Positions 1 through 45,865 of a stretch of DNA of 64,000 bases are shown in pieces. The stretch spans positions 186,001 to 250,000 of the forward strand of contig ADNK01001197.1 of assembly GCA_000320545.1 (NCBI GenBank). Reading direction: 5' to 3'. Source of the DNA: Bigelowiella natans CCMP2755. Its lineage: Eukaryota > Protista > Cercozoa. How positions within the stretch are numbered: the first letter of the stretch is position 1; every line of letters begins with the position of its first letter. Below the pieces are notes generated by a model. That model was not told where the DNA came from and did not search any database. It saw nothing but the letters and a program-made list of their open reading frames with translations. The position numbers and the translations under genes are program-made.

Positions 1-208
1 AAGCCGCAGTCACCGATTTAGCAACAATAGCAACTCCCCACATTCACCATCATCAAATCGCCCCAACCACGTTAAGATGGCAGAGTTTAGGTCGAGAGAT
101 CTACGAAATCGGGGGAACTTCAGCTCTTCCCCGCCTGTGTCTCCATGGAGAGCATCACAGATGAATCGCCAGAAATCAAACCGAAATCGTGTTCCGTGGC
201 GTAGGTAG
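1..208 (+). CDS. 3' end of an unidentified gene (Ser/Arg/Asn-rich C-terminus, partial)
   Basis: Frame starting at nt 2 is open to TAG at 206-208 (SRSHRFSNNSNSPHSPSS...NRNRVPWRR*); normal TA content, unlike the DNA that follows. Confidence 0.4.
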   Translation, partial: SRSHRFSNNSNSPHSPSSNRPNHVKMAEFRSRDLRNRGNFSSSPPVSPWRASQMNRQKSNRNRVPWRR

Positions 209-574
209 CTCAAATCTTGAGAAGTTTGGAGACTGGTTAATTGGCCACAATGAGCTTCTGCTCAAATGGACAACCCAACAAATGTCAAACATTCTTGTTA
301 ACCAAAACAAACACATCTAAACGCATGTGCATCAATGTTCACATTTGTGGCTGCGCGAAGCGTGACTTGGTCGACACGGTCGTCAGCAATCATGTTAACA
401 ACACAGTGATTTGCACATCTAGCCAGCATGCTAGTATGCGCCATGCACAGTCGCGTGTAGTCGACCTCACATGATCAAAAAGCAGCATGGCTGGCTATAG
501 CCAGGCTGGTCGGTCTAGCGATGCAATGTGTGGATGGCGACCGCTGTGCGACGATCTATCTATGTCCATGTAAC

Positions 575-1015
575 CACATTAGCATTGCACAATTTGCAGC
601 TTGCCGCAAAAAGCGCAGCGTCGCGTGCGTGCAAAAAAATGATTGCATTGAGCATGTGCGCACAGTCGCTTGCGCGTGCACAGCTGCGCGCACTTTTGCA
701 TCGCGCGCATTTGCATTGCGCACGATGCACGTGTGCACACATCGTGCTGCGTGGACGTGCAGTTGTGGCGCACGTGCGCACGTGCGCACATGCACTGCAC
801 GCTCGTGCGTTCCAAAGATGCATGCACGCACGTGTCTGCACGTTGTTTGTTGCGCAATTTTGCAATGCAACGCTCACGTTTTTCGATGAAAAAACGATCG
901 TGCATTGCGTGCGATGCAACTGCACGAGTGCACGCACGCTAGCACGCGTGCACGTGTTCAACGTGCGCAGCCGTCACCAGTGCTTTGGCAGAGCCCGCTG
1001 CCTTGCTCTGTTTGC
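575..1015 (+). repeat. Left long inverted arm of the transposon
   Basis: ~695-763 TTTGCATCGCGCGCATTTGCATTGCGCACGATGCACGTGTGCACACATCGTGCTGCGTGGACGTGCAGT matches the reverse complement of ~4160-4228 with 1 mismatch; ~585-700 matches rc of ~4525-4655; ~870-895 matches rc of ~4078-4103; ~982-1015 matches rc of ~3898-3932. Confidence 0.9.
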
Positions 1016-1146
1016 ACTTTGAGCTGCCATGACAATTTGCTCGCCGTGCAGCGCGTGCAGTGCAAAAAGTGACGCTTTTCAGCGGTGCATGCGATGGCAT
1101 GTCAAAACGACAACTTGCAACAAGCAGCAGCAGCGACACTCCAGCA

Positions 1147-1995
1147 TCAAATTTCAGACTCGTCGCTGCTGCTGCTAGAAAGCACCTTCTTCTCCCCGTC
1201 CCACACCGACTCTTCGAAAAAAAAAATGCCAATGTGCTGATTGGACTTGACCATTTCGCATTGCTCAATGGTGGTTCCATTCGGAACCCGCACATTGAAC
1301 TCGTGCTGGGAGGGAGGCAGTTTCAGTTTTTCAACGTTTCTTTGGCTCTGACTTGCTCAGAAGTCAGAGCCGCCACTTTCGTTGACAAAGCCACCACGTC
1401 AGCTTTTTCCTTTGGTGGCTTTGTTTTCATTGTCACCTGATGCGAACGAACACGCAAGGTGACATCGATTGTGACGAAGCTGCGCAGGGCTTCACATTGA
1501 GTTCCGCTGTGGAACTAGGTGCACCCATGTGAAAGCAAAAGTGAAATGGGAAAGCACCTTTGTCATCGAGTGGACTTTGTCCACCTCGAATTCATGTGAA
1601 GCCCTGCAGAGCTTGTTGATCAACATCCACGTCCCTGAGTCAAGCTCAACTTCAAAGGGCGTGGGGCCGCGGAGCAGCATCTGCTCCGCCAGGTCGCTCT
1701 CAGAGCGACCCATCTCCTCGTCTGCACTTGCGTCGGAGAGGTCATCACTGACCTCCGGATCGTGTTGCCGTGCTCTCTTTCGAGACGGCGTTGAGGAGGA
1801 GGAAAGGCTGCTAGCGGGTTCAAGTCCCAGGGTCCGCGCTCGGCGCTTCACCTGGTTCCCGTTGGCCTTCCCTCGGCCAGAACTGAAGCAAGTTTTCGAT
1901 GGATGAGCCCAGGGCCGGGCAAGCTTGTCAGGAGGGATCGTGCGGATCCACCCTTTCAATTTGCGGTCCATCTCGTCCGTCCACTTCAACCCCAT
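1147..1995 (-). pseudogene. Harbinger-associated Myb/SANT-like DNA-binding protein, degenerate
   Basis: MGLKWTDEMDRKLKGWIRT...PW...F....NQVKRRARTL fits the Myb/SANT W-T-x-E-x-D-x-x-L pattern; probable intron ending ~1438 and a frameshift ~1330; the 185-aa ORF 1492-2049 has no Tyr. Confidence 0.7.
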
Positions 1996-2070
1996 TGGAC
2001 GCAAGCTGCAATTTTTGCGCGCGAGCTGTTGTCGCACTCGCAACGGCAAAAATTGTCCTGCGTGGGGTCA

Positions 2071-2102
2071 CTTGCGACAAGGGACCGGGCCCTTGTCGCA
2101 AG
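2071..2102. promoter_or_regulatory. 32-bp near-perfect palindrome between the divergent transposon ORFs
   Basis: CTTGCGACAAGGG-accggg-CCCTTGTCGCAAG, perfect 13-bp arms; regulatory role is inferred from position. Confidence 0.45.
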
Positions 2103-2631
2103 GGAAAACACCCGCAGAAGCTAGGAGCACTCGAATGTCAAGTTTCGAGAAGCTAGCTTCGGGTCAGATTTGTGTCAAATCACCAGGATTGCAAGTTGCA
2201 CTTGTGCAATCCCGACAGGTGCAGCAGGCGCTTTGTCGCAACGACACAAAGCGTTTGTGCAATGCTTCTGTCGGGAAAACATTGCAACGTCCTGTTGATG
2301 TTTGTGACTCATCTCGACGATCCATGGAAAGCTCGAAGCTCGAAAAAAGCTCGAAGCACAGTGGGCCGTCGATGAAAGCTCGAAGCACACTTGACTTTGT
2401 CGGCGAGCTTTGGGGCCCCTGTTGGAGCTCAAAGCTCAAGCTGCAAAAGACAGGTGCTTTGGGCTCTGTGCTAGCGGGAAACCCACCCCCGCCCGCCACA
2501 GCGCCCACGTTGACGCCAAAGCTCGCGTGCGAAAAAAGCGCACTTTTTCGAAAGCGCAATTGCGCTTCGCGCTTCCAGATTTTTTCGAGCTTTTCGGCGC
2601 AATCGAGCTTTTTCAAAATTGAAATGCAAAC

Positions 2632-3940
2632 TTGGGTACAGGCTCCCATGAGCGTGCCGAAGTTCACAACGCACGTGTGGACCATTGCAACTTCCTCTCC
2701 TTCGTCTGTGAGTTTCACTTTGCTCACAGGAAGGAGGAGGAGAGAGAGGCCTGGGTGGGGCCATTCGAGAGCTACTTCCATGAGTTCTCGCACCCAGCCT
2801 GGATCTCCTCCTTCGGATCAACCGTGGAGGAAGTGCAGCATGCATGGGACAAATGCAGATGTGAAACAGGGTTGTTGCGCAAAGATGTCCTCATCGGACT
2901 GCACTTTGTGTGGGCACATCCGACCCAACATCAAGGTGCAGCCCTGTGGAGGATGCATCGCAACACTTGCAAGTGCAAGTGTTGGGTCCCCGCAATTGCA
3001 TTGTGGGCCCACATGAAAGAAATGAAAATGGACAACAGAAAACATGATTGCATCCACACCAAAGGTCTCGCCTCCCACGTGACCCTGTGCGTCGACGCCA
3101 CAGACGCGCCGATTGGCAAGCCTGCATCCAAGGCTGACCAACGGCGCTTCTGGACGTTTGAAAACAGGAAGTTTGCCAAGAGGCACGTGGCGGCGGCGGC
3201 ATCCGTCGCCACGGGGGACCTCGGGTTGGCAAAGCACACCCCGCTGCCACCGGTGACCTCCCCATCGTTCGTGGGGAAGCCGGGTCAGGCGGGGAGCGCC
3301 TCGACCTGCAGGTCGAGTGGTTTGAGCGAACAGGTGGGGATGGTGCCCACAGGTGTAGGCAGGACCCCAAGTGCATCGCTCCGCGGAGAAAACCGCGCAA
3401 CAAACCAATGGCTGCCGCCGACCGTGAGCACAACACGGAGCACGGCGGCACGCGTGTGATCGCAGAGAACGTGTTCTCCAGGGTCAAGTCCTGGGCGGTG
3501 ATGACCCCGTGGAGGCATCACCGTGATCTTCACGACATTTCTGCTGGCCTGGTGTTCCAATTGACCCAGGTAGGTGCAGAACGTCGTGAAGCTGCACCTG
3601 ATCACGCTGATTGCGTTCGGTATTGTTTCCACAGGTCAAGAACATTTTCAGACCTGTGAGGGCTGGTGTTCGCAACCAGCCCGGGACCAAGCGCAGCTGG
3701 GACGTGGCCCGGGCCACTGGCTCCGTGCCACGTGCAATTCCCGCTGCAAAGTCCAGGGCTGCACGCAGGACATTGGTCTTGCAAAAGCAGCCCAAGCGGA
3801 AAAAGGGTCGTGCCTCCTCGAAGCACGCTGTGGCGCAGGATGCTGCCATGCGTGCATGGGAGGAAAAGATCTACGCAATGCACGCGTGTGATGCAAGGGC
3901 AGACAGAGCAAGACAGCGAGCTCTGTCAAAGCGTGCATGA
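2632..3940 (+). pseudogene. PIF/Harbinger (DDE_Tnp_4-like) transposase, frameshifted and hypermutated
   Basis: D1 motif TLCVDATD (~3080-3105); after a frameshift at ~3230: KAHPAATGD, D2 motif GDGAH (3336-3350), E motif EHNTEHGGTRVIAENVFSRVKSW (3426-3494), then WRHHRDLH; GT-AG intron 3570-3634 (LTQ|VKNIFRP). Confidence 0.85.
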
Positions 3941-4670
3941 CACGTCTGCATCATCAACGCGCACGTGCAGACACGCACGCAAACGCGACACATGTGTGCA
4001 CGCACGTGCCAGCGTGCGCAGTGCGCAAGCATGCATGCACTCAGCTGCATTGCACGCGCATGCAGTTGCACGATTGACTTTTTTCATCGAAAAACGTGAG
4101 CGTCATTGTGTCGCAAAGTTCACGCAACAAACGACGTGTTGATGCGTGCGTGTGCATGCACTGCACGTCCACGCAGCACGATGTGTGCACACGTGCATCG
4201 TGCGCAATGCAAACGCGCGCGATGCAAATGTGTGGACATGCATGTCCCTACACGTGTAGCCGTCTACGACATGTCTAGCATGTGCACATCGCATGCTTCA
4301 CATGCACCCACAGCTGCACATGTGCCAAATGACAGCGCTCACATGTGCACAGATAGCATGCATCCATGTGTGCCATGTGTTGCTTGTGGTGCATGTGTAG
4401 TGGCTTGTTTGGTGCATGTGTGGATGTGAACAGAGCATGTGTGCTTTTTAGGTGCATGTGGTGTGCATGGGTGGATGTGTTCCTTGTGCGCGTACACGCA
4501 CATGGACATGTGTGTCCCCACACAAAAAGTGCGTGCAACTGTTCACGCGCGAGCTGATGCGCACGCGCAACTGACTGTGCGTGCGTGCTCAACGCAATCA
4601 GTTGTCTGCACGCACGCGACGCCGCGCTTCTTGCGGCAAGCTGCAATTGGTGCAATCTAGCAATGCCACA
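3898..4670 (-). repeat. Right long inverted arm, interrupted by a ~290-bp insertion (4230-4523)
   Basis: Reverse-complement similarity to 575-1015 in blocks; 4230-4523 has no counterpart on the left and is bounded by a degenerate 24-bp direct repeat. Confidence 0.85.
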
Positions 4671-5595
4671 CATGTCCCAGGGAACATGTGTGCTTTTGAC
4701 CCGGTACGCTCTATAGCCATACTAGCATGTAAGGCTATGTATCTAACAATGGCATGGATGTGGAACGTTAATCACAACTAGATGCATGTAACCCAGCAAC
4801 GTCAATTGTCCCAACGCTATGGCAACACGTCTAGAAGTGTGCGATGCGTGGACAACTAATGCACAGCTCTAGAGCGCTAGATAGCACATGATGCGCCACT
4901 CAGCAGTTACTTACATTGATTGTCTTCGATCATTGTCACAGATGTCATCTAGCTAGTAGATCTAGAGATGCTTTTGCTAATGGATTGGCGAATTGTAGCA
5001 ACATGCATGCTGGTGGTGCTTGCTAGCTTGTCAGTCTGTCATTCATTTTGACAGACCTCACTGTGCGACACCACTAGACCATGCTAGCATGCTCTTACGA
5101 AGCACATGCTGCATTTAGTGCATGTGTGGAAGATGTACGATGGCTTTGTTGCATCAGTGCATGCTCACTTTACTTTCATTCAGATTCGCGATGATCACGC
5201 ACATGCACAATGTCTAGATGTGACGTCAAACGCTTAGCACGCAACATCGGTCCCTTTGTAATCCCTTGTGAAATCATGCCTGATATTTTGATGGAACCGC
5301 CCTTGTGATGCACACCTAGTTCTTTTTTGCACCATTTGTGCGTCGTATGCCAGAATTGTCAAAACAAATTTCCACCAGGTTTCGGTCTAGTTGGATGATC
5401 ATGCTGAATAGCCTTGCGGGCCCTTCACACACAAACAATGTTTCATCGACACATAGTATCGCATCTTTCGCAGTGCATATATTCTTAGAAAGAATAGGCA
5501 CCCTAATTGACATTAAATTGAATGTCTGATAAAAATAATGCAATCTATTAACTGTACTATCCTTGTAAATCAACTTCATCTGCCTTGACGCCCAA

Positions 5596-6136
5596 TCAAT
5601 AAAATCCTATTTCGCCAAGGTTTTGTGTCAACACAAACTTCTTGCAAGCGCGGAACACCTGTGTACCCACATTTAATTGTAATGGCAGACTCAATGATTG
5701 ATAATGGGGTATCGTTACCCTATCTATATTGTCGGTGTCGAGCCCACATGTGAAGTACGTATACACGTTCTTTTCTACTTTGACCCTTGAAATAAACAAC
5801 TTCTGCACATATTTCTGGACTTCTTTCAATTCGTTCGGGCCTATAGAAGTGTCGTTTTACGTGAAATACACTTTCCGCATAATAACACATAATTAATACC
5901 TTCGTAGCCGAAGACACCTTTGAATGGGACATGTGGCAGTTTCTCTCGCAAGAGATCTATCTTATTCAGAAACAGAATCATACCGGATTCCGCAAAGGTA
6001 TCATTATTTGCTATTTTTTCAAATTCGTTCAGAGCCTAAAACATGCAAAAACAAAAATAATAATAAAGTTAGCTTCAAATTTCAGGACTCTTTTAGCGGA
6101 TGTGTTGGCACGGGAGGAGAAAGAGGGATACATATA

Positions 6137-6183
<47 letters not shown>

Positions 6184-7428
6184 AGAGATAGAAAGGGGGG
6201 GGGGGAAGGGAGAGTATAGATAAGCGAGAGATTCGTGTCCCCAACTGTAATTAGTTCGTACCTCATCCAAACGAGAAACCTTCTCGTCCTCATAAAGTAC
6301 TTGGTTGTACTCTGATATGGCTGCTATAAACATCACCGCAGTAATGCCCTAAGAAGATATTTATTTCTCATTTTATATAAGCAACTAAGTCTGTCTCCAA
6401 AGAAATACCTCGAAAAAATGAATCCACTTTTTCCTTTCGTTTCTTTGCCCGCCAACATCCACGAAACTAGGGCGTGGTAATTTTAGGATAGGTTCAGCTT
6501 TAAGCTTTTGCGACAATTAAGCTAACCCTTTTCATAAGGATACTTACGTGAACAAGGCGTTCTCTATCTTTAAGTTTCGTTCAGCGATACCCGTTGTTCG
6601 ATTTCTCGCTCTTTCAACACAAGAAAATCTATTCAGTTTAAGCGAACTACACTTTTGTATATGACTCATTAACCTTAAAATGTCGCAGTCTTTAGGCAGA
6701 AAACTGTTGCTTGAAATTCGTTTGATATCATTGAAGAAACTATGCAAAGTTCATGTTAACACACATTTCATAGGAGAAGAAAAAAAAATCTTACCTGGCT
6801 ACTGTATCTGGAAACTGAAGCTTCCCTCGTTCTCTAAAAATTTTCCTAATAATTTCGCTCTTCCACAGTTTCTATTTGTAAAAAAGTTCAAATTAATGTA
6901 TTAACGTTGTTATCGTGAAACTATTATTGCAGCACCTCTATCGCAACCCCGAGTTCAGGCTTCCAACCATCTTCTAGATATTCATCCGCCTCGGAGATTA
7001 TTTCAACATACTCCTCTAAATCAGAGCCTAGCTTCATCTCTTGATCCTCAGCATGATCTAGAATTTCCTGCATACTGGAGACTATGTTTCTTCGAATAAC
7101 AACCTTGAAACTGAGGACAGAAATATGTAAGGTTAAAGAATCGCTTTTAGAAATACGGTATGTTCAACTACTTCTCTTTCTCATGCTGCTCGAATGGGAC
7201 GCCAGCAAGAATCTGCATTTGTTTGAATATAGTTGATTTTCCAGATTCACCGGTTCCTAGTAGCAGAACTTTGGAAATCTCTGCTTGCTCTTTTGCGTCC
7301 TTCTCCATTTCCCTTCACGGAAAAAAATCTGTAAGGCAGGCTGAAGAAGTACTCTTTGAAGCTTACCTTTCGATAGCCTTAGTTTTTTTCGACATTTGAA
7401 CTTCTTCCTCCGATGCGCAGATCCCCAT
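5596..7428 (-). CDS. Heterotrimeric G-protein alpha subunit (multi-exon)
   Basis: MGICAS N-terminus (myristoylation/palmitoylation type), P-loop LLGTGESGKSTIFKQM, DILR|ARNRTTGI, DVGGQRNERKKWIHFFE, LFLNKID, TCGLDT, C-terminus VFRACKKFVLTQNLGEIGFY*; GT-AG introns. Confidence 0.95.
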
Positions 7429-8191
7429 CCTCTTTATCTTGAAATCTGACAAAAATCCAGTACACTTGTCACCAGCCGCCATTGTTGTACTCCCATTTTA
7501 AGTCATCACTTGTGATGTGAAGAAGTGTCGAACCAAAAAAAGACGCATGAAAATGAAATGTGGAGCAATAGGACTTATGTGATAGTGTTGAAGAACTTAC
7601 ACCAGTCCAGGATGCGATAATCTTCCTTTTCTTTTTATTTTCAGCTGTGGATCTGTTGGGGGGTGGATGTAAAATATTGGCTGGCCAGATTTTGCAGCGG
7701 AATTTTCGAGCGAGAATAATCCTGAATAAATCCCATATTTGGGATTCCACATATGTCTCTTGACTCAAAAGAAGTGAAATTTATGCATTTTCAATATCCC
7801 GTTAACGTTAAAAAAGGCTGAGTGGAGGAGGCCTGGCTTTTCTGATGCATGTCGCTAAATATATTACACATATATTATATGAAAGCGACACACGGTGACG
7901 TCCTCCTCTGCAAGTGGTTACAGTCTCCAATTAAGATGTAATACTGCAGGAAAATCTGCAGGAATTTGAATTATACGACAAGGCTTTGTGGTGAAATGAG
8001 GAAAACCGAAGTTTGCTAAGAAGTAGCAGATAAAACTTATGTCGTAGATGAAAATTAAAGGAGATTTAGTGTCAATTCGTAATTCAAATACGAACTTGTC
8101 GGTCATCCTCCGATTCATCATCACTGCAAGTAGTCAACCAACATCAAGCGACGATCGTACGATCGTAAGCTGCCTCCTATAAGGCTTACTC

Positions 8192-9333
8192 ATGATAATA
8201 CGGCTGACAGGTATGACATAGATGATGATAACAAAGAAACTTTTCATGATTTTTTTTTTCAGGAAACACTGGTCGAATTCGGTTTTTCTTTGTTGCTTTA
8301 TCGCTTGTGGTAATCGCCAGGGTGGGAGGCGAAGAGGTAAACAACCAAAAAATGACGAATCCCGTGCACAGTGAATGATTTGATGTCACAAAGGTGGAGA
8401 ATGACGACCTTGATGTAGGAGCCGAGTTCCTTGCTTTACAAAGGCTATTAAAATTGAGGTTCCAACCACGCGTCGTGATCGACGGGGGGGCAAATGTTGG
8501 TGACTGGTCAAGGGCTGTTAGGAAAATATTTCCTGCCGCTCAACTGCTCTTAATAGAGGCGAATCCAAACTTGGGAAATAAATTAAGAAGGTGCAACATG
8601 ATCCAAGCAAACATGGTTATTCCTCTTCTCACCTCTCCTGCATTATTTACATCATTTTAACTACTTCGAAAGGGTCTCAGAAGAGATTGGAAATGCGACC
8701 ACTATCATCGCTGCTCTGAACGATCAACGAATGGAGGTAGTTAGATGCATATATCTTCTATGTCGATATTCTTATATGTTTTGGGCTGAATGGATCCATT
8801 CCCTCGCAGTTACCGTTCTACATATCCGAACCGGAAAGTAAAGGTACAAAGCAACGAGAAGAATCTTTACATGGAGAATGAATGGAAGACTAAATGACCT
8901 TCTTCATGATAGGGAACTCACTATTTCGGGAAAATACAGAATATTTTGAAGATGCGATGGTGCAAAAGATAGATGCCAGGACTCTCGATGATATCTGTGA
9001 AGAAAACGTGCGTGCGTCATCTTTAAAATAGCGAGTAGTGTCATCAATACGAGTGTCGCAACCAAGAGTGTGATAGCAAAACACTTTCATTGGTGATAAA
9101 ATGCAGGGCTTACTTGGGATTGTGGATATACTCAAATTAGATGTTCAAGGAGCTGAACTAGTTGCTCTTCGAGGTCACTTATTTCTCCCATCTCACCTTC
9201 ATCATCAACACTTGATGGTTTTCTCACTCCTCCACCCTCCCCTTGTCTTTCTCAATTGATAAGGTGCAACGAAGGCGCTCAAATCAGTCTCGGTCGAACG
9301 CCGATATCCTCTAACCTGTCCATTCAACCCTAC

Positions 9334-9379
<46 letters not shown>

Positions 9380-9886
9380 ACTATATATGTAATATTTACA
9401 TGTATATTATTATCTGGGTGTCAGTTTAGCTGCTGTCTGTCTGTCTGTCTGTCTGTCTGTCTTCTGTATGGGGAAAAGAGGCAATAATAAGAGCCATGTT
9501 CTGTCTGATAGTATTGTTGTACATTGTTACCAGCTTGTTACTTTGGAACTATCGTTGATCGATTACAACCAGGTTCTCAGTAGAATGTTGTGTTATATTC
9601 GATGGCCATAGGGATGGTGGTTTTAGGAAGGTTGCCTTATCTTTGCTCATGTATCTTAGCTTCCTTTTTTTGGGGTTTTCTTTTCATACGAGCGTCTCTT
9701 CCAATGTTTCCTTTTTCAACCTCCCTTTCTCCTTCAGAATTCTAATTTGAGAATATTGATGTAGGGGGGGGCTTGCTACTTTGAAGTGGACGATTTTCTA
9801 CGATCCCAAGGATTCTCAATGTCTGTGTTATGGATTCCAAGAGAATATTTGCGTGCAAGAGTGTTCGTGTTTGCGTGCTTATGCGT

Positions 9887-9924
<38 letters not shown>

Positions 9925-10225
9925 GGGGGGGGAGAGGACAAAGGCATATTTGAGTCCACGAACTAAACATTAATAGGTATGATATCGTGGAGACGAAGTA
10001 TTCGTCGCTTTACAACACAACTGGGGTCATAATGTTTAATAATTAACGACGAAGATAAAGACAATTTCCCAGTCATTATCGATGGACCAAAAAAGACTAG
10101 CATCCATTATATTCCCGCCGCCTCTCTTCGTCACCATCATTCCTTCTTTTAAACAGGCCGGGCAAATCGACGCCATCTGGATTAAGCCTTCTTCACGGTT
10201 CGTCTACCATGCGACCTTGAATTAG
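8192..10225 (+). CDS. FkbM-family (Methyltransf_21) SAM-dependent methyltransferase with N-terminal hydrophobic anchor (multi-exon)
   Basis: Spliced MIIRLTG|NTGRIRFFFVALSLVVIARVGGEE|VENDD...VIDGGANVGDWS...LLIEANP; TLDD; DILKLDVQGAELVALRG; LELSLIDYNQ; QIDAIWIK; TAG at 10223-10225. Confidence 0.85.
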
Positions 10226-10446
10226 TTTGTAATATCTGTTGTCGCGAAAACGCCTAACTATCAATGCCAGTGCTTTTCTCTCTGCAGACTTACGAAATGC
10301 GCAATTCTGTGGCACTAAAAGACAATCAAGTGATGTTATCATAAGCAAAGAGATAAAGCCAACACAGAAAATTGGGGTACTTATTTTTTTTTCCCATAGG
10401 AACTGTGTCTTCTGTCCTCAACTCAACCAACTCAACCAACCAATAG

Positions 10447-11054
10447 GATAATGATGATGCCAAGTACAACCAGCAGCATCAAGACCAGCGGAACCGTGCT
10501 GCTACTTTGGAAGTAGAGACAAAATATGTACCTGTTGCTTGTGGGCAAAATGTCCGCCAACCGTGTGGAAGTGACCGGTAACCTCGTTACAAGATGAAGT
10601 TGAGAATGTTGATATCATGCTCTCATTCTTTACTGACATGCGCGTATCGTCTTCTTTCATTTTCAGGGTCACATATTATATCCTATTTCTAGCTTGCTTT
10701 CTATCGGCGTTGGTAATTAAAGGAGTTTTATTACTTTGCGAAGACAAAGGCTCAACAAAACATTTTAATATAGGTAGGATCGATCCTCACGACCTTATCT
10801 CTCCACGCATATCCACTGTCTAGCAAAGGTATTTGGAGATACTCCTGCCTCTATAAATATTCCATACACTGATACAAACACTGGTTAATGGATTGCATGC
10901 GTTCGTATGTATCGTAGTCCCGGTCTCTACTGCAGGCTTTCACCCGAAAATGTTCCATTGCAATAATTCGCTCCAGTCCTCCAGAGGGGCGGGAATTCTT
11001 GGTTTGTTGATGGGCGTAGGATTCGGTATAGCATTGAACAGTGCATTGTCATGA
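10447..11054 (+). CDS. Small predicted membrane protein (start exon unresolved)
   Basis: Four GT-AG-joined exons stay in frame: DNDDAKY...GSDR|VTYYILFLACFLSAL|VGSILTTLSLHAYPLSSK|GFHP...GILGLLMGVGFGIALNSALS*. Confidence 0.5.
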
Positions 11055-11119
11055 GCGCGCGCCGCCGCAGCGTGAGCAATATACATGTCATATTTTATTG
11101 TGCATCTGTTTATTTAGCT

Positions 11120-11204
11120 TGTAAGACGGATGTAATGAATCAAATTAAATTTATTTAATGGTCATTCTCATGTAGCTGTGCAATGCAGCGGCTACAGCGC
11201 TGAT
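11120..11204 (+). repeat. ~85-bp dispersed repeat, copy A (inverted relative to 14544-14627)
   Basis: Reverse complement aligns to 14544-14627 with 7 substitutions and one 1-nt indel. Confidence 0.9.
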
Positions 11205-12427
11205 AATAATATTGAATTTTTAAGCTTGTACCGTAGTCTATTGTTAGGGCCATCAGTGTGCATGCGTGCAGCTGAACGAGTACCAAAGAGTATGTAGCCT
11301 CTGTGCCTACGTGTCTCTGTAGTTTCACCACTAGACCAGTATATAATAGACACAGGAATACCATATGGATATATGTGTCCCTATATGGAATTCCCTAGCT
11401 GTCTATAATCAGTAGACACTACGCATGTAATTGCTACCTATAGACCGGCGCACACGAGTAATCAAGTAATCTCTGCCAGTATCTAGTGCCGTTGTATAGT
11501 TGCACGTCGTACGCATAGATCGCTGCGATGGTTTGATCGTCCGTTCACGCACGTATAAGCTGACTAGCTGACGGCTGCGTATGTACGTCCACACATAGTG
11601 AGCTCGCCTGGCATTACGTTAACTGTGTACATACATCGTCTACAACATACAGACAGCAAGATACAGATGGTGTAGTACGTCGTCTTTGTAATAAATCGAT
11701 GACATTCGAAATCTGAAGGTCGAGCTTCTCTCTACTTTTTGTCAGTAGTGTACCAGGTAAATTACGCATACACGCTTAGCCAAACTTTAGCGTTTCCCAG
11801 ATATCTACGTATATTTTCAAGAATTTCGTTATGTCGTTTACTGTAAAGCATATAAACTAAAACACGTAGGTCCACATTAAATTGCAATACTGTCTCGGAT
11901 CACACATGATGATTACTCTACGATTCCTCTCTGTGAGTAGTCTCCAAAAACATAAATACCTGCGTTTTTACGCACTTGAGCAAGAATCTAAATTCATTTT
12001 CACACTTCCCCTGAAAAATGATGAAAATAAAAGGCATTGGGTGATTTTATTTCTACCAGGTTGAAGAAAGGAACCTTAGACATCGAGTTGATGTTGGACG
12101 CAATGCAGCGGCCGTATGTCGATGCCTTGGAAAGTAGTAACAGGTTTTTCAGCTCCTCATAGTAAGGGAGAATAATAATAGATGTTGAAGTTTCAATACA
12201 AAACGAAATCCTATTTAAGAATACTATATACTCCTATCGTAAATGAGAAGATATACCTCTGATCCACATTTGGCATAAGCCTTGGCAAGACGAGAAACCA
12301 AGCTGCGGGGAGGTCCTGACGGCATTTACACTGCAAATCCAAACCTGATATCAAAAGAAAGTTTTTTGTCGGTAGGATTAACCAATATTTGGTTAGAGAA
12401 TGGCTACCCTAAGTGCAAGTCTCTCTC

Positions 12428-12468
<41 letters not shown>

Positions 12469-12661
12469 ATGCACTTGTTCGTGTGTTTACTTGCATATGT
12501 AGTGAGTTTAAACTGATGAACCCTACAATTTCCCCAGTACCGATGATGCTCTGGTATCGGGTGGCAAGGAGGCAGAGGAGGCAGAGGAGGCAGAGGAGGC
12601 AGAGGATGATGAGGAGGAGGAGTGGCGAAAGGACAATTGCTCTGGTTACGAGTACGAAGGT

Positions 12662-12772
12662 AAGTCGCACCCTTGATTATCCCCATGTTTTGCATCTTGC
12701 GACAACAACAAGAAGTAATAGTAATAGAAGTCGCATCCTTGATTATCCCCATGTTTTGCATCTTGCGACAAC
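12662..12772 (+). repeat. Tandem duplication (45-bp core, 66-bp period) upstream of the fibrillin gene
   Basis: AAGTCGCA(C/T)CCTTGATTATCCCCATGTTTTGCATCTTGCGACAAC at 12662 and 12728. Confidence 0.9.
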
Positions 12773-12913
12773 GACAACAACAGGAACAACAATACGGCCA
12801 AGCAATCACGTCGGGAGGGCCCGGCGAGGAGGCGCATGGTTGTGGAACGTCTTATTTCTTATCGAATTCAATTCTGTGTTAGATAATTGGTAACCTGTAT
12901 ACTTGTTGCGTAG

Positions 12914-14244
12914 TTGCGTGACGTCGTCGCCGTCTTCGTCACAGTGCTTCTCGCTGCACAAATCACAGCCCGCTCGACGACTCTTACAGGACGAGCGACG
13001 GCTGTGAGAGTAAGAGGAATCGGGAAACCTTTTGGAGCTAGTGTGGAAAGTTTGCTAAGCCTTCGAAAAAGACTCGAACGTAATAGAAAAATACTTAGTA
13101 AGTGCAGCAAGAACAGGGGCTCAGAGTGGAAGGATGCATCTACACACATAGAACCCTTGAAAACCCGACTGTTTGGAGCAATCGCAGCAAGACCCCAGGT
13201 ATACGAAAATTAATGGATATTTTTTGATTCCTCTTTATCTTATATATGTCATCATTGTAATTTCAACTTACTTGGTAATGCGAAAGCGAACCAAAAATAG
13301 CTCTAATTGCCGTGCGTGCTTGTTTGCAGGTTACGCAAGACATCCTTTCGGCAATCGAAAGCATTGAGAGAGAGGGGGGGCAATGCTCAGATTTTATGTC
13401 AATATCAGGCAGATGGTCATTGGTCTACTCAACTCAAACTACTACTTCATTCACTATGGCCCAATCGCAGCAGCAGCAGCAGGCACAGGACCTGATAGAT
13501 TCAGTCATTCAAGGCAGCACTGCAGCTTTGTATAGGTACCAGTTTGTTGAATAATTTTGTACGAGTAGTGATACTTGAATGGCACGGTCCTCCTCCTACC
13601 TTATATTACAAAACCAGGTTCTTCTTTAAGTTTGCCCCAGCCCTGGCTGGGGCACAGGAACAGGACCGAGACGAAGATCTACGAGACTTTTTCGGTGGAG
13701 GAGTAAAAAATGAACAGATTGTAGACATTGAGAAAGGTCTTGTGAGCAACAAGGTATTGTTTATCAATTTCTTATTAATTCAGTTTCATATTGCAAGTGT
13801 GCACATTTTTCCGTTCTCATGATTGTCATGCTGAACACTAAGGTTCAAGCTCGGTTTTCAAAGAACGGCCCTTCGCTAAAAATCAATGTCGTCGGAGAAT
13901 GCACACCATCAAATGATAGTATGAGCAATCTTCAGGTCATATTCACGGAATTCTCAGTTGAAATTCCATGGACGAGGTATTTCTTGGTGTGTGAAAATCC
14001 ATGTTTTTGTCAATGTACAATTTGTGCATGTACATGTGGTGTACCTTATTACACATGTGTCACAAATGCAATCAAAGATCTTCTTGTGCGTTTGGGCTGT
14101 GATGTTTTTAGAGTTGGGCTCGTGACTGTGCCATTGCCAAGGCCGCGAGGTGCCTTAGAGACAACTTTCTGTGATGAAAACTTGAGAATTTCTAGAGGAG
14201 GCAGAGGTGGAATCTTCGTTCTTAAGCGATTGCGGCCAAATTGA
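12914..14244 (+). CDS. PAP/fibrillin-family plastid lipid-associated protein with bipartite leader (multi-exon; start Met possibly at 12836)
   Basis: ISGRWSLVYST and LETTFCDENLRISRGGRGGIFVLKR are the fibrillin N- and C-terminal signatures; leader VVAVFVTVLLAAQITA followed by a basic Ser/Thr-rich stretch. Confidence 0.88.
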
Positions 14245-14543
14245 TTCGAATGAGTCCTGTAATGAGCTGTAGCACTGCACAATTATGCGAGTTTGTGTTC
14301 ACGTGAATTGAAAATCGGGAGAGGCTGTGCATGTGTAGGGCTGATTTGCGCCACAGCGTACTGGTGTGTGTGTAGCCCAGCCGACAGGACATGACAATAA
14401 CACGCAGATTTGGGATTAGCTACTGCACGTGCAGATGCTGAATGCACTGTGAATCAAGCGTAGTATGGCCTACTGTGATGCTGTCTCTGCATTGTTAGCG
14501 CAGTCTAATGTGCTTTTTCAAAACTTGAAGTACACATGTCCAC

Positions 14544-14627
14544 ATTAGCGCTGTAGCCGCTGCATTGCATAGCTACATGAGGATAACCATTGAACAAATT
14601 TAATTGATTAATTACATCCGTCTTACA
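14544..14627 (-). repeat. ~85-bp dispersed repeat, copy B
   Basis: ATTAGCGCTGTAGCCGCTGCATTGCATAGCTACATGAGGATAACCATTGAACAAATTTAATTGATTAATTACATCCGTCTTACA, inverted partner of 11120-11204. Confidence 0.9.
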
Positions 14628-15021
14628 TGTATAGACATGTCTAACAAGTAGATGTGTCACAGTCTAGCAGTGTTCGTTTTGATCTCATTGTGATTTGCAA
14701 CATTGCGTGCAAGATGCACTGTCTAGCTATGCCACAACGTACTATAGGCGAAACCTGGGAATTTCACGGTTTCGCATGTTTCCTGCGATGCAAGAACTGA
14801 AGCAATGCAGCGGCACTGCATGATTTGTGTGAAAATATAAAAAAAAACACATTTTGGCTTGGTTCGAGAAAGAAAACTCAATTTTTGAATGTGCTCGAGG
14901 TCAATTTCTGACAAAATTTGCTTGAGGTCTGAAAAAAACGCAAAATTTCGAAGTCACTAAACCACGAAGTAAACTCAAAATTTCGCGCAGCTTTCTCATT
15001 TTCGTGATTGGTCATGCTTCA

Positions 15022-15419
15022 CAAGTCCGTCAAACACAATAAACCTGTAACGAATTGCCAGAATGTGCATTTGGAAGCTTTTGCGCGCGACCAAGCGCGT
15101 CATGTGATGCAATGGACATTGGATTTGCTCGCATTTCTTTGAAATTTTTCGTGCACATCACATTTGGTCAAACGCACACGCAAAAGCATTCAAAATGTGG
15201 CAGAGAACAAACGCGCAGCGTGCATCCGCTGCACAACGGGTGTGAATTTTCACACTTTGAGGCCTTGAAAATGGACATTTTGGTTAACATTTCGGTCATT
15301 TTTTCAGGTTTGGCCATCGGACAAGTTCTGATGACTTTTCTTTGACTAACTGCAACTGCCCGCTGCTTCAAAGCGCTGCACTGTTCACAACCCCATCGTT
15401 GCCGGGTTTGACGGACTTG
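15022..15419. mobile_element. 398-bp MITE-like element with 14-bp perfect TIRs (probably Tc1/mariner type)
   Basis: CAAGTCCGTCAAAC (15022-15035) and GTTTGACGGACTTG (15406-15419); flanks CA (15020-21) and TG (15420-21), read as an edited TA TSD. Confidence 0.7.
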
Positions 15420-16285
15420 TGTTGACAGGTGCTCCTGGCTGTCCATGTCAGGATGGTCATGTGCTCACGTGGTGTTTTCAGGTTCACTTTTTGATCGTGC
15501 GTGGCCGCACTAGATCGCACTGAGCATTGTCAGAATTTTCGGCCTTTTTTGGCTCCGTCTCCTAGAATGCTTGCATCGCCTACTTGTGGCTAGCACAACT
15601 AGCTATGCTACGCTGCTCAACATCAGAACAGCTCAATTAGACTTGGACTTGCGAATTCACCAATTTCTGTGTCCAGCGCGCACGGCTAGACGGTGCTGAT
15701 GTTGTGCTTTGCACATCTGTCTACTGTGCATGATGCGCGCCAGCTGTAGCTCCACAACTAGATGCGTGCTTGCACTACACAACACGTAGTGCTGTGTCTC
15801 ATCTACACTCACAGCTGTTGGTGGAGCGCACATCCATGCGTACTGTAGACATTTACGACGACAAGCTGTGCCAACATTGATCCATTCTAGTGCGTGCTAC
15901 ACAGTGATAGTTGCTAGGTTGCGGCAGTTCCAGTGAACCGATTGTTTTCTGTACCGATCGCTTATTGTGCATGCATCGTTGCGACACAAGTACATGTAGG
16001 AACACCCTGCATGTTCACTCTCCGCCGACGTGCATGTTCATCATGTGTGTTAGTTTGGAGATACACTGCATGCACATACAAATACTACCCGCAAGCAAGG
16101 TGCATGCCCATAGCTAAATAGTAGCGTAACATGTACGTATGCAACTTGAAGGAGCGTGTGTGAACATAGTGAACACGTAGATCCACTTTTACATAATATA
16201 TACCTATACTTACACCTGCCAGCCTACGGCGATGCACACTCACACACTCACACACTCACACACTCACACACACACACACACACAC

Positions 16286-16334
<49 letters not shown>

Positions 16335-16377
16335 AACGTTTTTAATCATTTTCCAGACATTACCATACGCCCTAGAA

Positions 16378-16705
16378 CTAACTCTTTCGCTTCTTCGCCT
16401 GAGTGTCATTCGGAGCTAACTGCTCTAGTCTGAAGGCATTGCGTACTTTTTGAAACAAGAAATAAATAACGTAACATAGAGCCACCACTGCGAGGACATC
16501 TTCCCCATCGAGAACCTTTCCATTGAAACAGAAAACCATCAAATCCTGACGCACTTGTTGTTGTCGTACCACTCATATCCATAATGTTTGATGAGCATGC
16601 TGCACATAGAAGATCGCTATGCTTACCCTGACAGTTCCTGGATCGTCTGCGCTCATCAAAATGATCTGATTCCAATCTTATTGAAGAATATGTGGCAGTA
16701 GCCAC
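16378..16705 (-). CDS. Possible small single-pass membrane protein
   Basis: VLAVVALCYVIYFLF hydrophobic segment and basic C-terminus AKKRKS*; GTAAGC donor at ~16626; splicing not resolved. Confidence 0.35.
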
Positions 16706-17188
16706 TACACAAACCTAGGGAGAACTTTGGGGAGGGATGGGGGAATGCGTAGTCTGTGATTAGTGGACGGGAGTTCGTTGCAAGATGTTTGGCTTCCTCC
16801 CTAGACTATTTAAGTATCTTGCTTCCTTAACTTCTTGCCTCCTCTATGCTACATTATGAAAGGAGCAGATCCCACCACTTGTTTTGTTCGATGTTCTTCC
16901 TCCAAGTCCTTTCCCCTCCCCCTGGACTAGATCTATCACCGACACGGAAGAAGAAGGAGAAGAAAATTGCCATCCAATTCGCATTTAGGACTAGACTTTC
17001 CTCAGCATAATTGTCCTCCTATTTGTATGTACGACAAAACTAATCTGATACCTTTTAAAATACCCACACATCCTCCCGCCAAATTTCAATCGTTCCAATT
17101 TCTTTTCTTCGTTTTCCCGCTCGCGGGATTAGGGGCAAACCTTAATATCGATATTACTGACAGAACATTTATTGAGAATATATAAAGG

Positions 17189-17973
17189 ATGCCTGTAGCT
17201 CTGCATCGATTGCCATGCAGTATTAAATACAGAGGAGAGGCAAGAGTTACGAATTTCTTCAAAGTTACGGAGGAGAGTAAATCTGACTCATCCTGCGAAC
17301 AGGATGGGGGAAAGTTCGAAACTAAAAATGGTTCGCAGAAACCAAAATTTAAAAGTCAGTTTCAAGGTCAGCGTCTGGAAGGTTACAAAGTAAAGCTGGA
17401 AGATATTGGAACTGGTGCTCACAATGAATTTAAAAAAAACAAGTGGAAACCCATCTCGTTTCAACTTTTGCGGTGCATTTTGCTGCAATTTTGTCAATCT
17501 CCTAATGTCACTTTCTCATGTAAATCTCATCTACAATTTCTGTCTACAGAAATTCATGAGTTTCCTAAATCTTCTTAAAATTAGGGTTAATTGTCGAATC
17601 TCAGGGAGATTGCATTGAATCTGTTCAAGCCGAGCAATCGCCACTAAAAGTATAACTGCGAATAGTTACCCAATTCTAAGTTATTATTTTTCTTTCAAAA
17701 TAATTTGTTTGAACGTTTTTAGGTGATCAATCAGTTCAATAACTTTATTCTCTGGAATCGCACTCTAGAATCTGGGATACATGATAATTTAAGGCAATCT
17801 GTGGAAGATTGGCCTGCAATTGCAAATTTGGTGCGTATCCCTCCAAACCCATTCGAACTTTCGAACTTTATACACCTCATGCTCTAACGTGTATATTTAC
17901 TTCATCATATTTTCCAGATCATTTATGGATTTTATGTTGATTTAATTTACAGGTACATGATCCGATAGAGTAG
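17189..17973 (+). CDS. RNASEH2C: Ribonuclease H2 subunit C (multi-exon)
   Basis: LHRLPCSIKYRGEARVTNFF, SQFQGQRLEG, FNNFILWN, DWPAIANL|VHDPIE* match the RNase H2C family motifs. Confidence 0.85.
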
Positions 17974-18800
17974 GGATATCCAACGTCCCAACGCAAAATG
18001 TAAGCATTATGGAACAACTAACAATGAATAGTGCGTGCACTCTGCACTGCTACCTAATGAGATTCCAATGTTCTAACACAATGATGTGCACTAGTGTACC
18101 CTATCACCGTTAGTTGGCAGTGCATCTAGCATTTATCATTATACTAGTATACATTAAAGTAGCTTCAATTTGTTCTCCACAACGTTATCCATAGCGCGTA
18201 CGTGGATCGCTTAAATGATTGCCGAATTCTGAAACAATCTTTGATAAATTCTGGCGCTGTTATGGGGCCGCGAATCACACTAGCACAACAATGTATATCG
18301 TACGTCCATGCCTAGATGTAGCCACGCACGCTATAGCTCTAGTAGATAGCACGTGCAACAATAAAGAATGAATGAAGTCAGAAGCAAGTGTAGCTAGCTA
18401 GCTAGATAGCGTGCGTGTAGCTAACAATGCGCAGCACTACAAGACTTCGACTATTTTTTTAGTAACAACAAGCGCTTATAATGCAGGCGACTTTGTCTAG
18501 CTAGTTGTGCATATGCGGATCAATTATCATGTGGCACCACTTTAACATCGTAACGCCACGAACTGGTGAGTCACGACACATATGAGAAACAGTTGTTCTA
18601 GCAGTGTTGTGCGTGACAGCTGCCATACTACGTGCGCATTGCCCCGCGCGTTAGCACACAGCCTAGATAGCGCATACTAAACTAGCATATGCGCTGCCTC
18701 AGGTGTAGTCTGTACGCTGTACGTTGAAATAGAAGTATAAGATTTATGCGTGCACATATCGACTTGCTACACAATATCTAGAATATAAGCACACACGCTG

Positions 18801-18842
<42 letters not shown>

Positions 18843-18945
18843 GCTAACACACATTTAGACGCTGTGGAAACATGCACAAATCTGATTCCAGGCCAATGGT
18901 ATTTGATACAGTAATCGTTTTCTTTCTGCGACGTCCATATGAAGA

Positions 18946-20276
18946 TCATTTTCCCTTGCCACCGTTGCCACCATTCATCATCTTTTCAAATAAATAATAG
19001 TAAATCTCAAATTGAATACGAATTTAAACAAATAACCTGCTGCTGTTTTTTCATATTCTTATTCGACAGAGAAAGTTGATATTGATGATTTTTGTAAGCC
19101 GCCATCTGAAATTGACGAAATAGTTAGCACTCTGGCGACTAACGATGAGAAAGGATCTACTACCGCTACGACTACTACTGTTGCTACTACTCCTACTACT
19201 GCTGCTGCTGCTGCTGCTGCCGCTGCTGCTACTACCAGTAGATGCTGATATTGAAGTTGTTGAAAAGTCATCCCACTTCCCTGTCAAAGAAACCATAATC
19301 GTAATGCATTCAATAAATGAAAAACAAGTACTCAACACGCACCATGGCCTGAAGCTGCTGCTTTTGTGCTTGAAGAAGGGCTTGAGACATAAGAGCTTGC
19401 TGGGAGAACATATATTGAAATAAGAAAACCGAAAACAGATTTTTCAAGGATATTTAAGTACCTGCGACTGTAATTGCGGGGACATCTTAACAAGGCTGCG
19501 ACAAACAAATATGCAAAAATAACATATTTGGAGGGTTAGAAAATGCTATGATAGATAATGCTGTGATTATAAATTAAAGAAAATAGAGGGGTAGGGTGGT
19601 AACAACTTATTGTAAGCAGGGGGAAGGACAGTCTGTGCTTTAGCAGTCCCTGCAAGCATGTTATTCTGTTGTTGTTGTTGCGATTGGCCAACTCCACGTA
19701 ACAAAATGTTTTGGCTTGAAGTAGCTGAATTGGCCATAGCCTAAAATTTTAAAGAAAACACACACAATACATACAAAGTTAAACAAAATCAAACATGCAT
19801 CATCACATGGCTACTATCACCACCTGCTGTCGTTGCTGTGCTAGCATCTGCTGGGGATTTTTGAACATGTTCATTTGTAGAGCAGCGGAAGCAGCAATTG
19901 ATGTTCCACGGTTTACTGCTGAACCTTATAATATAATAATAGGAGAAAAAAATAAAAATAAAAAGAGGAAGTTGACAAGAAAGTTTCATCATCATCATCA
20001 TCGTCATCATCATCATCCCAACATCACTTTCATTGCTGAAAGAGGTAGGTCACCTAAAAAGGAGATTTTTGTCTATATTTCTAATTGGATGTCATGTTCA
20101 CCTGGTTGAGTGGATGTGCGACTGATGGCACTACTCTTCGATTGTTTGCTACGTGCCGCCGCTGCCATTGTGAAGCCATTGTTTGTTTGAGGATTTGCAG
20201 CATTCTGACCCGTATGTTGCTGTTGCTGATGATGATGAGTTGCCAAATTGAAAGCAGCAGCTTGGTGGGCCTGGTG

Positions 20277-20939: not shown

Positions 20940-23600
20940 TGGAAGAATTTGAAAGGCTGCTATTAGACTTGAAAATTATAGCTTGCTGTCTTGATTGCGC
21001 TGAAGATTTTGGGAGCATACTAGAGTCTTGTCGGCTACTTGATCAAACAAAAACAACAACAACAACAACGACGAGTACAGTACTAACTTGAGTAGCTGCG
21101 TGAAAGGAGAGGTTAGCACTAATTATTATTATTACTACTACTATTTATTACCTTTGAGCATTTGCCCATCGGTAGGCCCCCCCAGTCTTACCCAGAGCAT
21201 GCAAGCCATTTGGCTGCTGCTGAGGCCGTACTTGTGAGGTAGGCGTTTTCGTTCCCATGTCTTTTTGCGATTGTTGCATCTTGTTGTTTCCAACTTTTGC
21301 CCCCTTGGGTACCTGCTAGAAGCAGCAGCAGTAGTAGTAGTAGTAGTAGTAGTAGGAATGGCAGTTTTGGAGATGCGTGATTAACAATTATTACTCTACT
21401 TTCGAGTTTATATGCACAGCAGCAGCAGCAGTAGTAACAACAATCATTTGATAACGATATTGATGATGTTATTATTATTATTATTATTATCATTATTAGT
21501 CTAACCACCTGCTTTTGCCCAGCAAGCCATTTTTCTAGCATGACAGGGTCTCTGAGCAGTTTGCCGTGAATGGCCGCTGGAATATCGTTCTTAGTGTAAT
21601 AGACCATCGAAGCTTGACGGAACAAATATCTGGATGGATTGGAAAAGGCACACTCCTTGGACACCTTCTTCATTCTTCTCAGAAGTTCCAGAGTTGGATG
21701 CATCTTTGCTCGAGGCCGAGGTGTAAACATGTGAGGCTGTGATGATTCAGGATGATACTTTGCCATATGTGCCCTTCTCCTATCTTCCGTAGTAGCAGCA
21801 GCAGCAGTAGCAGCAGTTTCCCCGCATCCAAATGAAGAAGAAGAAGTAATAGTAGTAGATGTAGGCGTGGTCCCCGAGAAGTAGTCAATCATCTTATCTT
21901 CTGTGTTATTCCTCCATACTTTAGGAGTAATATTATTATTTTTTTGACGTCCTCCTGTCCTCATGAGAGTGGAGAGGCTGCTTTCTGATGGAGGTTGTGT
22001 GGTGGGGACATAACGCTTGTATATTCGTTTGGATCTGGTAGGCTTCATAGCAATACGCATCTCATCACGTGTGAGTCGTCGGGTCAAATTAGTTTTGAGG
22101 TTGTAACTTGCGACAGTCGCTGCCTGCAGCACTCGAGGAGAAGGCTCGAAGCTCACTTGCGGTCCACAAACCATGAGAAGCTTCTCTTCAAACGCTTGAC
22201 ACACCTTCAAGAATGCCTCTTCATCTTTAATGTGCCTTCCTTGATTGGACATGTTAGAGCGATATTGGGATGCAAGAAGCAACGAATCGCTGAGGATGTT
22301 ATAACCAGTAGGTTTGAGGAGAATGCGCCTTCTTATAACGTTCTTGTAGTTTCTCGTAACATGTCTGTAGTCGTGGATTTCTGCAATAAGACAACCATTG
22401 TAGAACTTTATTGGAAGCTCTTGCATCAAATTCTCAAAGAAGCTCGGAATTTCCCCGGCGTCAACTGCTTGCAGGAATATCCTGTTTTGGAGGCTGTATT
22501 TGTGGAAATTTTTGTCCCTTGAGTTCACAGTAAAACCTCCTTGGTACAAATGTAAAATGAGCGAGGCCTTTAAATCGTTTCCCATTCTATCGATTGCAAA
22601 TGCAGAGTCGCCATGTAGATCGGAAAAAAGCTGAGTTTTGGATGCCAGGTTGAGCTGCAGCTGGTGTCTAGAAAGTTTAGCCTCGAATGACTGTTTCTTC
22701 TCTCCAGGAGATAGGCCATAGCGCAACCAGCTCGGTTTCTTTTTTGCATACAATTCCGTAAATCGTGCTCGTGTTTGGACACGATCATTTTCCCTCAGCC
22801 AGTTAAATAATTCTGCCGGAGTAAAGGGACCGCGGCGGTATGGATCAATCGCCCTTTTCGTGGCTTGAAGTTGCTGATCTATAAATCTCTTCACCGCATT
22901 TTGATCCTTATTGCTCATTGCTTTCTTGACATTAATTATCTCCGTAATGTTAACGAACATCGAGGGGGGAGGGGAACGTGGGCCTGAGCTAGTGGATGAT
23001 GGGGTAGAGAGGCTGCTTTTTGATGAGTGCTTTTTAGCAGCTTTATTCGAGCCTACTATCGTAGACATTGACTTCGTGTTTCTAGGTCTTCCGCGAACAA
23101 GTCCTTTTTTCACTTTTGATTCTATAAATCTCCCGCGCTTACGCTTGATACCTGTTGGGAACACCTCGTGAATGCTTTCGTTGGTTTGAGTACTGCACTA
23201 ATGAATAATAATATGCAACAAGAACAGTTTTCTACTTTTTACTAATTGGGAGGAGAACCTTTTTTTCTAATCTGGAATGTGACAGGTGGAGCTCCCTGCC
23301 TCATGGCCTTGCTCCGCGCAGCAACTGCGGCCTTTTGCATCTAGAAATTAAAATTTGATGTTATAATAGCTAGAGATTGTTTCATGTAGTTATAGAAGAA
23401 GGGCATTGTTAACCGGTTTCCTCTTTCTTCTTATGTTTCAGGGGCGCAAGAGGCCAACAATGAGGTGTACCGTTCTGGAGAGCTGAAATGCAAGGGGACT
23501 CGAGCGGAGTCCCTTGTTGTCTGTCTGGCCCTTCTGAATCAATATTCAAAGAAATGAAGGACATTTTTCGTGTAAGACAACCATTTCTTTACGGTCTTAT
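18946..23600 (-). CDS. SPT20: SAGA subunit Spt20-family protein (large exon ~21500-23164, Gln/Ala-rich tail; 5' end uncertain)
   Basis: SLILHLYQGGF...FLQAVDAGEIP...FYNGCLIAEIHDYR...RRILLKPT...FEPSPRV is the Spt20 domain; downstream exons with (QA)n/polyA; last exon MMNGGNGGKGK* stops at 18946-18948. Confidence 0.85.
20681..20790 (+). repeat. Perfect 55-bp tandem duplication within the SPT20 locus
   Basis: GTGGGTGGGATATGTGAACTGCTGTATAAAATATAGATGCTATATGCGGCAGTAA x2. Confidence 0.95.

Positions 23601-38708: not shown

Positions 38709-38741
<33 letters not shown>

Positions 38742-40097: not shown

Positions 40098-40134
<37 letters not shown>

Positions 40135-45829: not shown

Positions 45830-45865
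<36 letters not shown>

Follow-up and report, generated by a model that had tools for sequence, protein, structure and literature searches.

Introduction

The closest described relative of the sequence changes considered here is a TpA to CpA/TpG hypermutation of integrated DNA of nucleocytoplasmic large DNA viruses (NCLDV) as well as virophages in Bigelowiella natans, known in the literature searched from one description, a 2026 preprint whose main text reports measurements on viral inserts and suggests transposons as further targets (Mettrop et al., bioRxiv 10.64898/2026.01.13.699255). We analysed a 64-kb stretch of the B. natans CCMP2755 genome (contig ADNK01001197.1, positions 186,001 to 250,000, forward strand; hereafter the window, whose first base is position 1) that carries a DNA transposon at about 584-4656, a 296-bp element inserted into this host transposon, and three similar 24-mers, two at the ends of the 296-bp element and one near 11.3 kb. 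The window provides a further example of this process, known from the same species, and two points of modest weight can be added.

According to the main text of the preprint, 230 of 231 de novo mutations in two viral regions were A>G or T>C, all at TpA, and B. natans has a standard nuclear spectrum with a 2.65-fold bias towards AT. DDE-endonuclease and reverse-transcriptase domains are enriched in TpA-depleted coding sequences (cut-offs per kb: Rho TpA ≤0.43, Rho CpA+TpG ≥1.52), the largest target is single-copy, an ADAT2-like deaminase is proposed as a hypothesis, and repeat-induced point mutation (RIP) is named as an analogy (Mettrop et al., bioRxiv 10.64898/2026.01.13.699255). The window is like these regions in species, in the change from TpA to CpA or TpG and in its regional pattern. 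The preprint measured the process in two viral inserts and deduced it for transposons from composition, whereas the window allows one copy to be set against another, both within a DNA transposon family and among small non-coding repeats, fixes the direction of change by outgroups and excludes CG as a product. Spread into single-copy flanks and an effect of the flanking base go beyond the main text of the preprint, in which miniature inverted-repeat transposable element (MITE), CpG, trinucleotide, context and CTAG are absent as terms; its supplementary tables may hold a context analysis. These two additions open questions of target and enzyme to tests on genome and mutation data that already exist; by themselves, the three 24-mers serve as an illustration only.

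In fungal RIP, dinucleotide-specific transitions destroy repeats, are resolved copy by copy and leak into flanking DNA, making TpA from CpA. The changes in B. natans share the destruction of repeats by transitions, the resolution per copy and the leakage into flanks, but run in the opposite direction.

Three homologous 24-mers

The three 24-mers are homologous pieces of a small dispersed repeat, and their differences at pyrimidine-purine (YR) steps quite probably arose by TpA-specific hypermutation, TA having gone to CA or TG independently in each copy. All three are read on the forward strand: the copies at 4230..4253 (1 TA left in 10 YR steps) and, in the same orientation, at 4500..4523 (0 TA left) mark the left and right ends of the 296-bp element, and the copy at 11363..11386 retains 5 TA in 10 YR steps. 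The five strings quoted for this family in a first-pass annotation of the window were each found, letter for letter, where it had placed them.

With YR steps collapsed, the degenerate 24-mer had three exact matches in the window, a count that 0 of 100 shuffles reached; as the pattern is near-palindromic, two extra self-reverse matches with 2 mismatches also occur. Because the transposon arms are rich in alternating YR steps, shuffles were also limited to YR-rich islands (6,225 bases), the check that the first-pass annotation had proposed, and here, for every k from 2 to 6, none of 1000 shuffles gave three matches and at most 3 of 1000 contained even one. Compared over 26 columns, the pairs of copies differ at 7, 6 and 5 of the 10 YR steps and at none of the 6 remaining bases, in agreement with the claim that all differences are confined to such steps, although the invariance of the non-YR bases is not an independent test, the motif having been picked for those matches. 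CG accounts for only 1 of the 30 YR steps across the three 26-mers, TG stands at two steps in every copy, and between the ends of the 296-bp element there are 3 CA/TG swaps in 10 YR steps.

Similarity between the 11.3-kb copy and the left end of the element had been said to continue in a 14-nt extension at 4257..4270 (forward strand), common to 11396-11409. Both strings are exact, and both retained TA steps stand in a TAG or CTA context, but a 6-nt gap had been passed over and 1 of 6 non-YR bases differs. Aligned with this gap, 11362-11409 and 4229-4270 scored 41.5 over 47 columns. A self-BLAST of the whole window with YR steps collapsed was uninformative, since YR-rich tracts all match one another. 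An inverted fourth copy at 11560-11597 was rejected, as 143 and 166 of 500 shuffles scored equally.

A chance likeness, with the TA-rich centre of a hairpin at 11363 coming to look like the element ends through the collapsing of YR steps, has very little probability. The 24-mer is carried by 6 non-YR bases, homology of the 11.3-kb copy ends after about 47 nt with unalignable flanks, and in a test corrected for post-hoc choice of the motif between 3 and 5 of the 300 shuffles run at each k (2, 4, 6) contained some collapsed 23-mer pair. Any collapsed 23-mer triple, however, arose in 0 of 300 shuffles per k in the same test, none of 500 shuffles aligned as well as the gapped 47-nt match, and the combined pattern of 24-mer plus extension had 2 matches in the window and 0 in 100 shuffles. 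The triple and the 47-nt match thus uphold the common origin that had been claimed for the three 24-mers.

Direction and products of the change

The direction of change was read from the transposase of the host transposon, where a Tyr codon (TA) becomes His by a change to CA and Cys by a change to TG, and would become Arg by a change to CG. Paralog P0002 has 12 Tyr columns, of which 11 hold Tyr in at least one of four outgroup proteins. At these columns five edited transposase rows (P0005, being the window's own model, was left out) contain 18 His, 16 Cys, 2 Phe, 2 Tyr and 0 Arg (38 residues), and the choice of His or Cys differs copy by copy. Judged by these protein alignments, TA is the ancestral state in the transposase family and its sites go about equally to TG or CA. 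Independent resolution of each site to CA or TG, as suggested at first, is borne out at the level of copies by the 18 His against 16 Cys; CG as a third outcome is contradicted by the lack of Arg among the 38 residues. One hit removes TpA on both strands, so CG is not expected as a product, and the lone CG in the 30 steps of the 24-mers needs another cause. An ancestor with TA at every step likewise finds no support, because every copy has TG at two of the steps and only 3 CA/TG swaps separate the arms of the host transposon over 92 YR steps (one block partly misaligned).

Of the 22 differences between P0002 and P0003 over 247 columns, 13 agree with a change of TA to CA/TG; the remaining 9 are grouped in two short stretches resembling gene-model junctions. 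Among 40 of the 311 rows for contigs from other transposon copies, 22 pair up as 11 TG/CA double swaps, a pattern that needs a TA ancestor. These swaps, the outgroup Tyr (TA) residues of the host family and the unchanged G and C of the non-YR core in all three 24-mers leave little probability for the reverse polarity, in which ordinary C-to-T change or CpG decay produced the TA of the 11363 copy from an ancestor with CA, TG or CG, even though the AT-biased nuclear spectrum given in the main text of the preprint and the predominance of CG versus CA/TG differences in the arms would accord with it.

The 296-bp element

The segment 4229..4524, which the left arm of the host transposon lacks, is non-coding and multicopy, has 7-bp inverted ends and is bordered by AAA at 4226-4228 and 4525-4527. 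The 24-mers lie 1 nt inside its two ends, and the description of the edited copies as bounding an insertion of about 290 bp is therefore correct. They match each other gap-free in direct orientation and, because of their near-palindromic form, can also be read as imperfect inverted ends. The element retains 8 TA in 110 YR steps versus 13 in 971 in the host core. Open reading frames (ORFs) crossing it would be stop-poor by-products of TA loss.

Four of 24 listed sequencing runs (three DNA runs and RNA run X21) were aligned to positions 1-12500 at 80% likeness, summed contig depth being a rough copy measure only. In all three DNA runs depth was 30-33x single copy at 4257, 8-10x at 4278 and 39-43x averaged over 4171-4587. 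The neighbouring bin 3754-4170, equally YR-rich, had only about 3x single-copy depth, and because the insert lies so far above it, it represents a separate family of some tens of copies. Other copies of the element skip 75-118 nt in its middle.

It is unlikely, though a serious alternative, that the element was edited elsewhere and inserted in its edited state, so that differences between copies would record lineage history and not distance from the host transposon. A non-coding element can move without an intact reading frame, it keeps more TA than the host core, and some 30 copies resemble the edited end at 4229, while the bin 11260-11676 can accommodate no more than one or two sequences similar to the less edited copy. 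In a simulation, however, independently resolved copies would align at 4257 in 93-100% of cases, and depth therefore does not show shared editing and does not separate editing in place from editing before insertion. The 3 CA/TG swaps in 10 steps between the two ends of one element are what independent resolution predicts, and, since editing spreads into the single-copy flank at this locus, any insert would also be edited in place.

By its structure the element is likely a non-autonomous, MITE-like DNA transposon with the near-palindromic motif as its end signal; two of four MITE features are clear (short and non-coding; multicopy). In an account of PHIS superfamily transposons (PMC4482050), the MITEs are likewise short, non-coding and multicopy, and they have inverted ends and a 3-bp duplication, of which the 7-bp ends and the AAA would be putative counterparts in the nested element. 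The end motifs of the nested element, unlike theirs, fit direct better than inverted repeats, and no partner transposase was identified. Its AAA differs from the duplications given there for PIF/Harbinger (TWA), ISL2EU (AT), Pangu (ANT), NuwaI (CWG) and NuwaII (TNA), and a Tourist-type (PIF/Harbinger) MITE was rejected because the best parse of the duplication is AAA and not TWA (PMC4482050). Homology of the element interior to an 85-bp repeat at 11120..11205 or to the DNA around 11363 was also rejected (203, 253, 362 and 36 of 500 shuffles equal). Elsewhere in the genome, contig joints (11184 and 11204 to 4395 and 4458) connect the 85-bp repeat with the 296-bp element, in the right part of the latter; within the window the two show no homology.

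Regional loss of TA and the flanking base

In each of the eight 500-bp bins between 501 and 4500 the observed/expected ratio of TA lies at 0.03-0.30, and CA and TG range there from 1.08 to 2.43, only some of these 500-bp bins exceeding the 1.52 that the preprint applies to 1-kb windows. Beyond the transposon lies a partly TA-depleted flank (4660..5500), single-copy from about 5000 and at background by about 5500. TA without flanking C or G occurs 0-1 times per 250 bp over 500-4500, then 3-6 times, and reaches a background of 14 at 5500. Because the loss fades over about 1 kb into the single-copy flank, editing acts regionally and not just on repeated bases. Long single-copy contigs showed 0 differences from the window in all three DNA runs, as far as contigs, which drop rare variants, and a transposon with few remaining TA can reveal them.

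TA is lost more slowly when preceded by C or followed by G, and most slowly in CTAG. Counting a 5' C or a 3' G as a protecting side and taking TA as a share of TA, TG and CA steps in the present-day sequence, we found in partly edited tracts, chosen by eye from the composition profile, 86/577, 95/261 and 40/59 TA for 0, 1 and 2 protecting sides (15%, 36% and 68%), an order that holds in five of five tracts. The corresponding counts in heavily edited DNA are 6/615, 11/281 and 9/36, and the shares are flat in the background (0.34, 0.31 and 0.30) and in coding DNA (0.29, 0.30 and 0.27). There is a weak lean towards 3' G rather than 5' C as the protector (p = 0.03, both strands counted), retention of TTAA is slightly raised (10/45 vs 76/532), and TA beside CG in the partly edited tracts is not significantly better retained (16/81 vs 70/496, p = 0.18).

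Further depleted or partly depleted tracts, in which no element was identified, lie at 14250-16200 and 17980-18780 (TA observed/expected 0.12 at 15001-15500). In RNA run X21, one-strand reads cover 4588-5838, across the partly edited flank, at a mean depth of up to 6.5.

The third copy and its surroundings

The 11363 copy stands at the centre of an imperfect 67-nt hairpin (11343..11409, forward strand; DNA fold z = -2.7, equalled by 2 of 200 shuffles). Depth near single copy marks it as an isolated fragment, and it would be a solo piece between genes, less exposed to editing. The view that the family is lightly edited at 11.3 kb draws on 3 of the 10 steps of the copy itself, read by parsimony, and on a neighbouring repeat pair, and does not extend to the region as a whole (TA observed/expected 1.07-1.31 over 11001-12000, no depletion). 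This control pair consists of the 85-bp repeat at 11120..11205 (forward strand) and its partner at 14542-14627 (reverse strand), which differ at 6 of 24 YR steps, all involving TA and three in each copy, and at 3 of 40 non-YR positions; the TA-linked differences support light editing next to the third 24-mer.

Helitron 3' ends consist of a hairpin followed by CTRR and then T, where homology ends. Such an end was rejected here, since CTAG at 11395-11398 is followed by C and homology runs past it.

The 85-bp repeat lies in a bin of more than 300x single-copy depth (320-350x). Its pattern had no match in viral or metagenome contigs, and an Rfam search over 1-20000 returned 11 matches, all far below gathering score and mostly simple repeats, with none for the 85-bp repeat. 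An untemplated A tail follows position 11164, 15 nt past ATTAAA, in 27 reads of run X21, and some copies of the repeat may supply a polyadenylation site.

Counter-evidence and proposed mechanism

Several observations weigh against descent of the three 24-mers from one TA-edited repeat family. The direction of change at their sites, which would be TA to CA/TG, is borrowed from the transposase family, and the pattern of 24-mer plus extension had no match in viral or metagenome contigs, so that the family is read from the window copies alone. The match at 11.3 kb is short, 47 nt with a 6-nt gap, the stretch 11.0-11.7 kb has as a whole a background TA level, and the bin holding 11363 has a depth of 1.1-1.3x single copy, with one contig spanning it at 0 differences in each DNA run. 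As to the element, fold-back beyond the perfect 7-bp terminal repeat is weak, since 6 of 500 shuffles do as well and, when the 24-mers are left out, 34 of 500, and the AAA duplication, as compared with the empty site in the left arm (about 694-697), sits in an A run and is seen at one site only. Of the 13 YR differences between the arms of the host transposon, 10 include a CG, and the arms are unlike at about 21 of 115 non-YR positions, so that other mutation must also have been active there. Under TpA-specific hypermutation, which we still favour, the three copies would capture editing at different stages.

Mechanistically, the A of TpA would be deaminated on either strand within silenced, repeat-bearing domains and not at single motifs. 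A hit on the top strand would yield TG and one on the bottom strand CA, fixed by replication; as the first hit would destroy the target on both strands, CG would not form. The enzyme would most likely be of the ADAT/TadA type, both enzyme and targeting being deduced, and the graded effect of 0, 1 and 2 protecting sides would be the expected trace of a strand-wise enzyme slowed by one flanking base. More broadly, and tentatively, the process could be a RIP-like defence run in reverse, in which adenine editing erases TpA in all repeat classes, including non-coding elements of 85-300 bp, extends in the manner of a chromatin mark for about 1 kb into unique flanks and follows a substrate code with slow TAG/CTA and slowest CTAG. 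If so, editing could be gauged across the genome with dispersed small repeats as dosimeters, and the context code would be a fingerprint by which to find the enzyme.

The host transposon and other features of the window

The host at about 584-4656 is a DNA transposon with long inverted arms, a frameshifted transposase and a second ORF. The left arm spans 584..1012 (forward) and the right arm 3897..4656 (reverse), which the 296-bp element interrupts; near the outer ends at 584 and 4656 the flanks do not align and a TWA is not assignable. A transposase remnant of DDE_Tnp_4 (PHIS-type) affinity lies at 2644..3653 (forward), with a frameshift near 3222 and Tyr replaced by His or Cys. The window's own frames had no Pfam DDE_Tnp_4 match; they are 67-79% identical to paralogs, all four of which pass the Pfam cut-off. 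Gene model jgi/Bigna1/73733 matches the window in 32 of 33 15-mers, which places the sequence in the B. natans nuclear genome. No relatives of the transposase were found in viral contigs, and an exact look-up of two host proteins found neither.

The second ORF (1495..2007, reverse) is conserved, and its B. natans paralog is numbered next to a transposase paralog. No Myb/SANT domain was found in it or in three of three relatives, in contrast to the PIF/Harbinger second ORF, which has Myb/SANT. Classified by its predicted proteins, the host is a PHIS-type transposon, sharing with the PHIS superfamily, as described in PMC4482050, a DDE_Tnp_4 transposase, a second ORF and long inverted arms. Small indels relative to other copies of the transposon occur at 3189, 3222, 3597 and 3619, the 4-nt gap at 3222 shifting the transposase frame. 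Almost no RNA reads of run X21 fall in the transposon core.

Elsewhere in the window, a 658-aa ORF with an Spt20 SEP domain lies at 21188-23164 (reverse). Three very long ORFs at 27035-46254 (reverse; 1691, 3607 and 1011 aa) with SPRY, RCC1, laminin-G and HECT domains probably form one giant HERC-like ubiquitin ligase gene with few introns.

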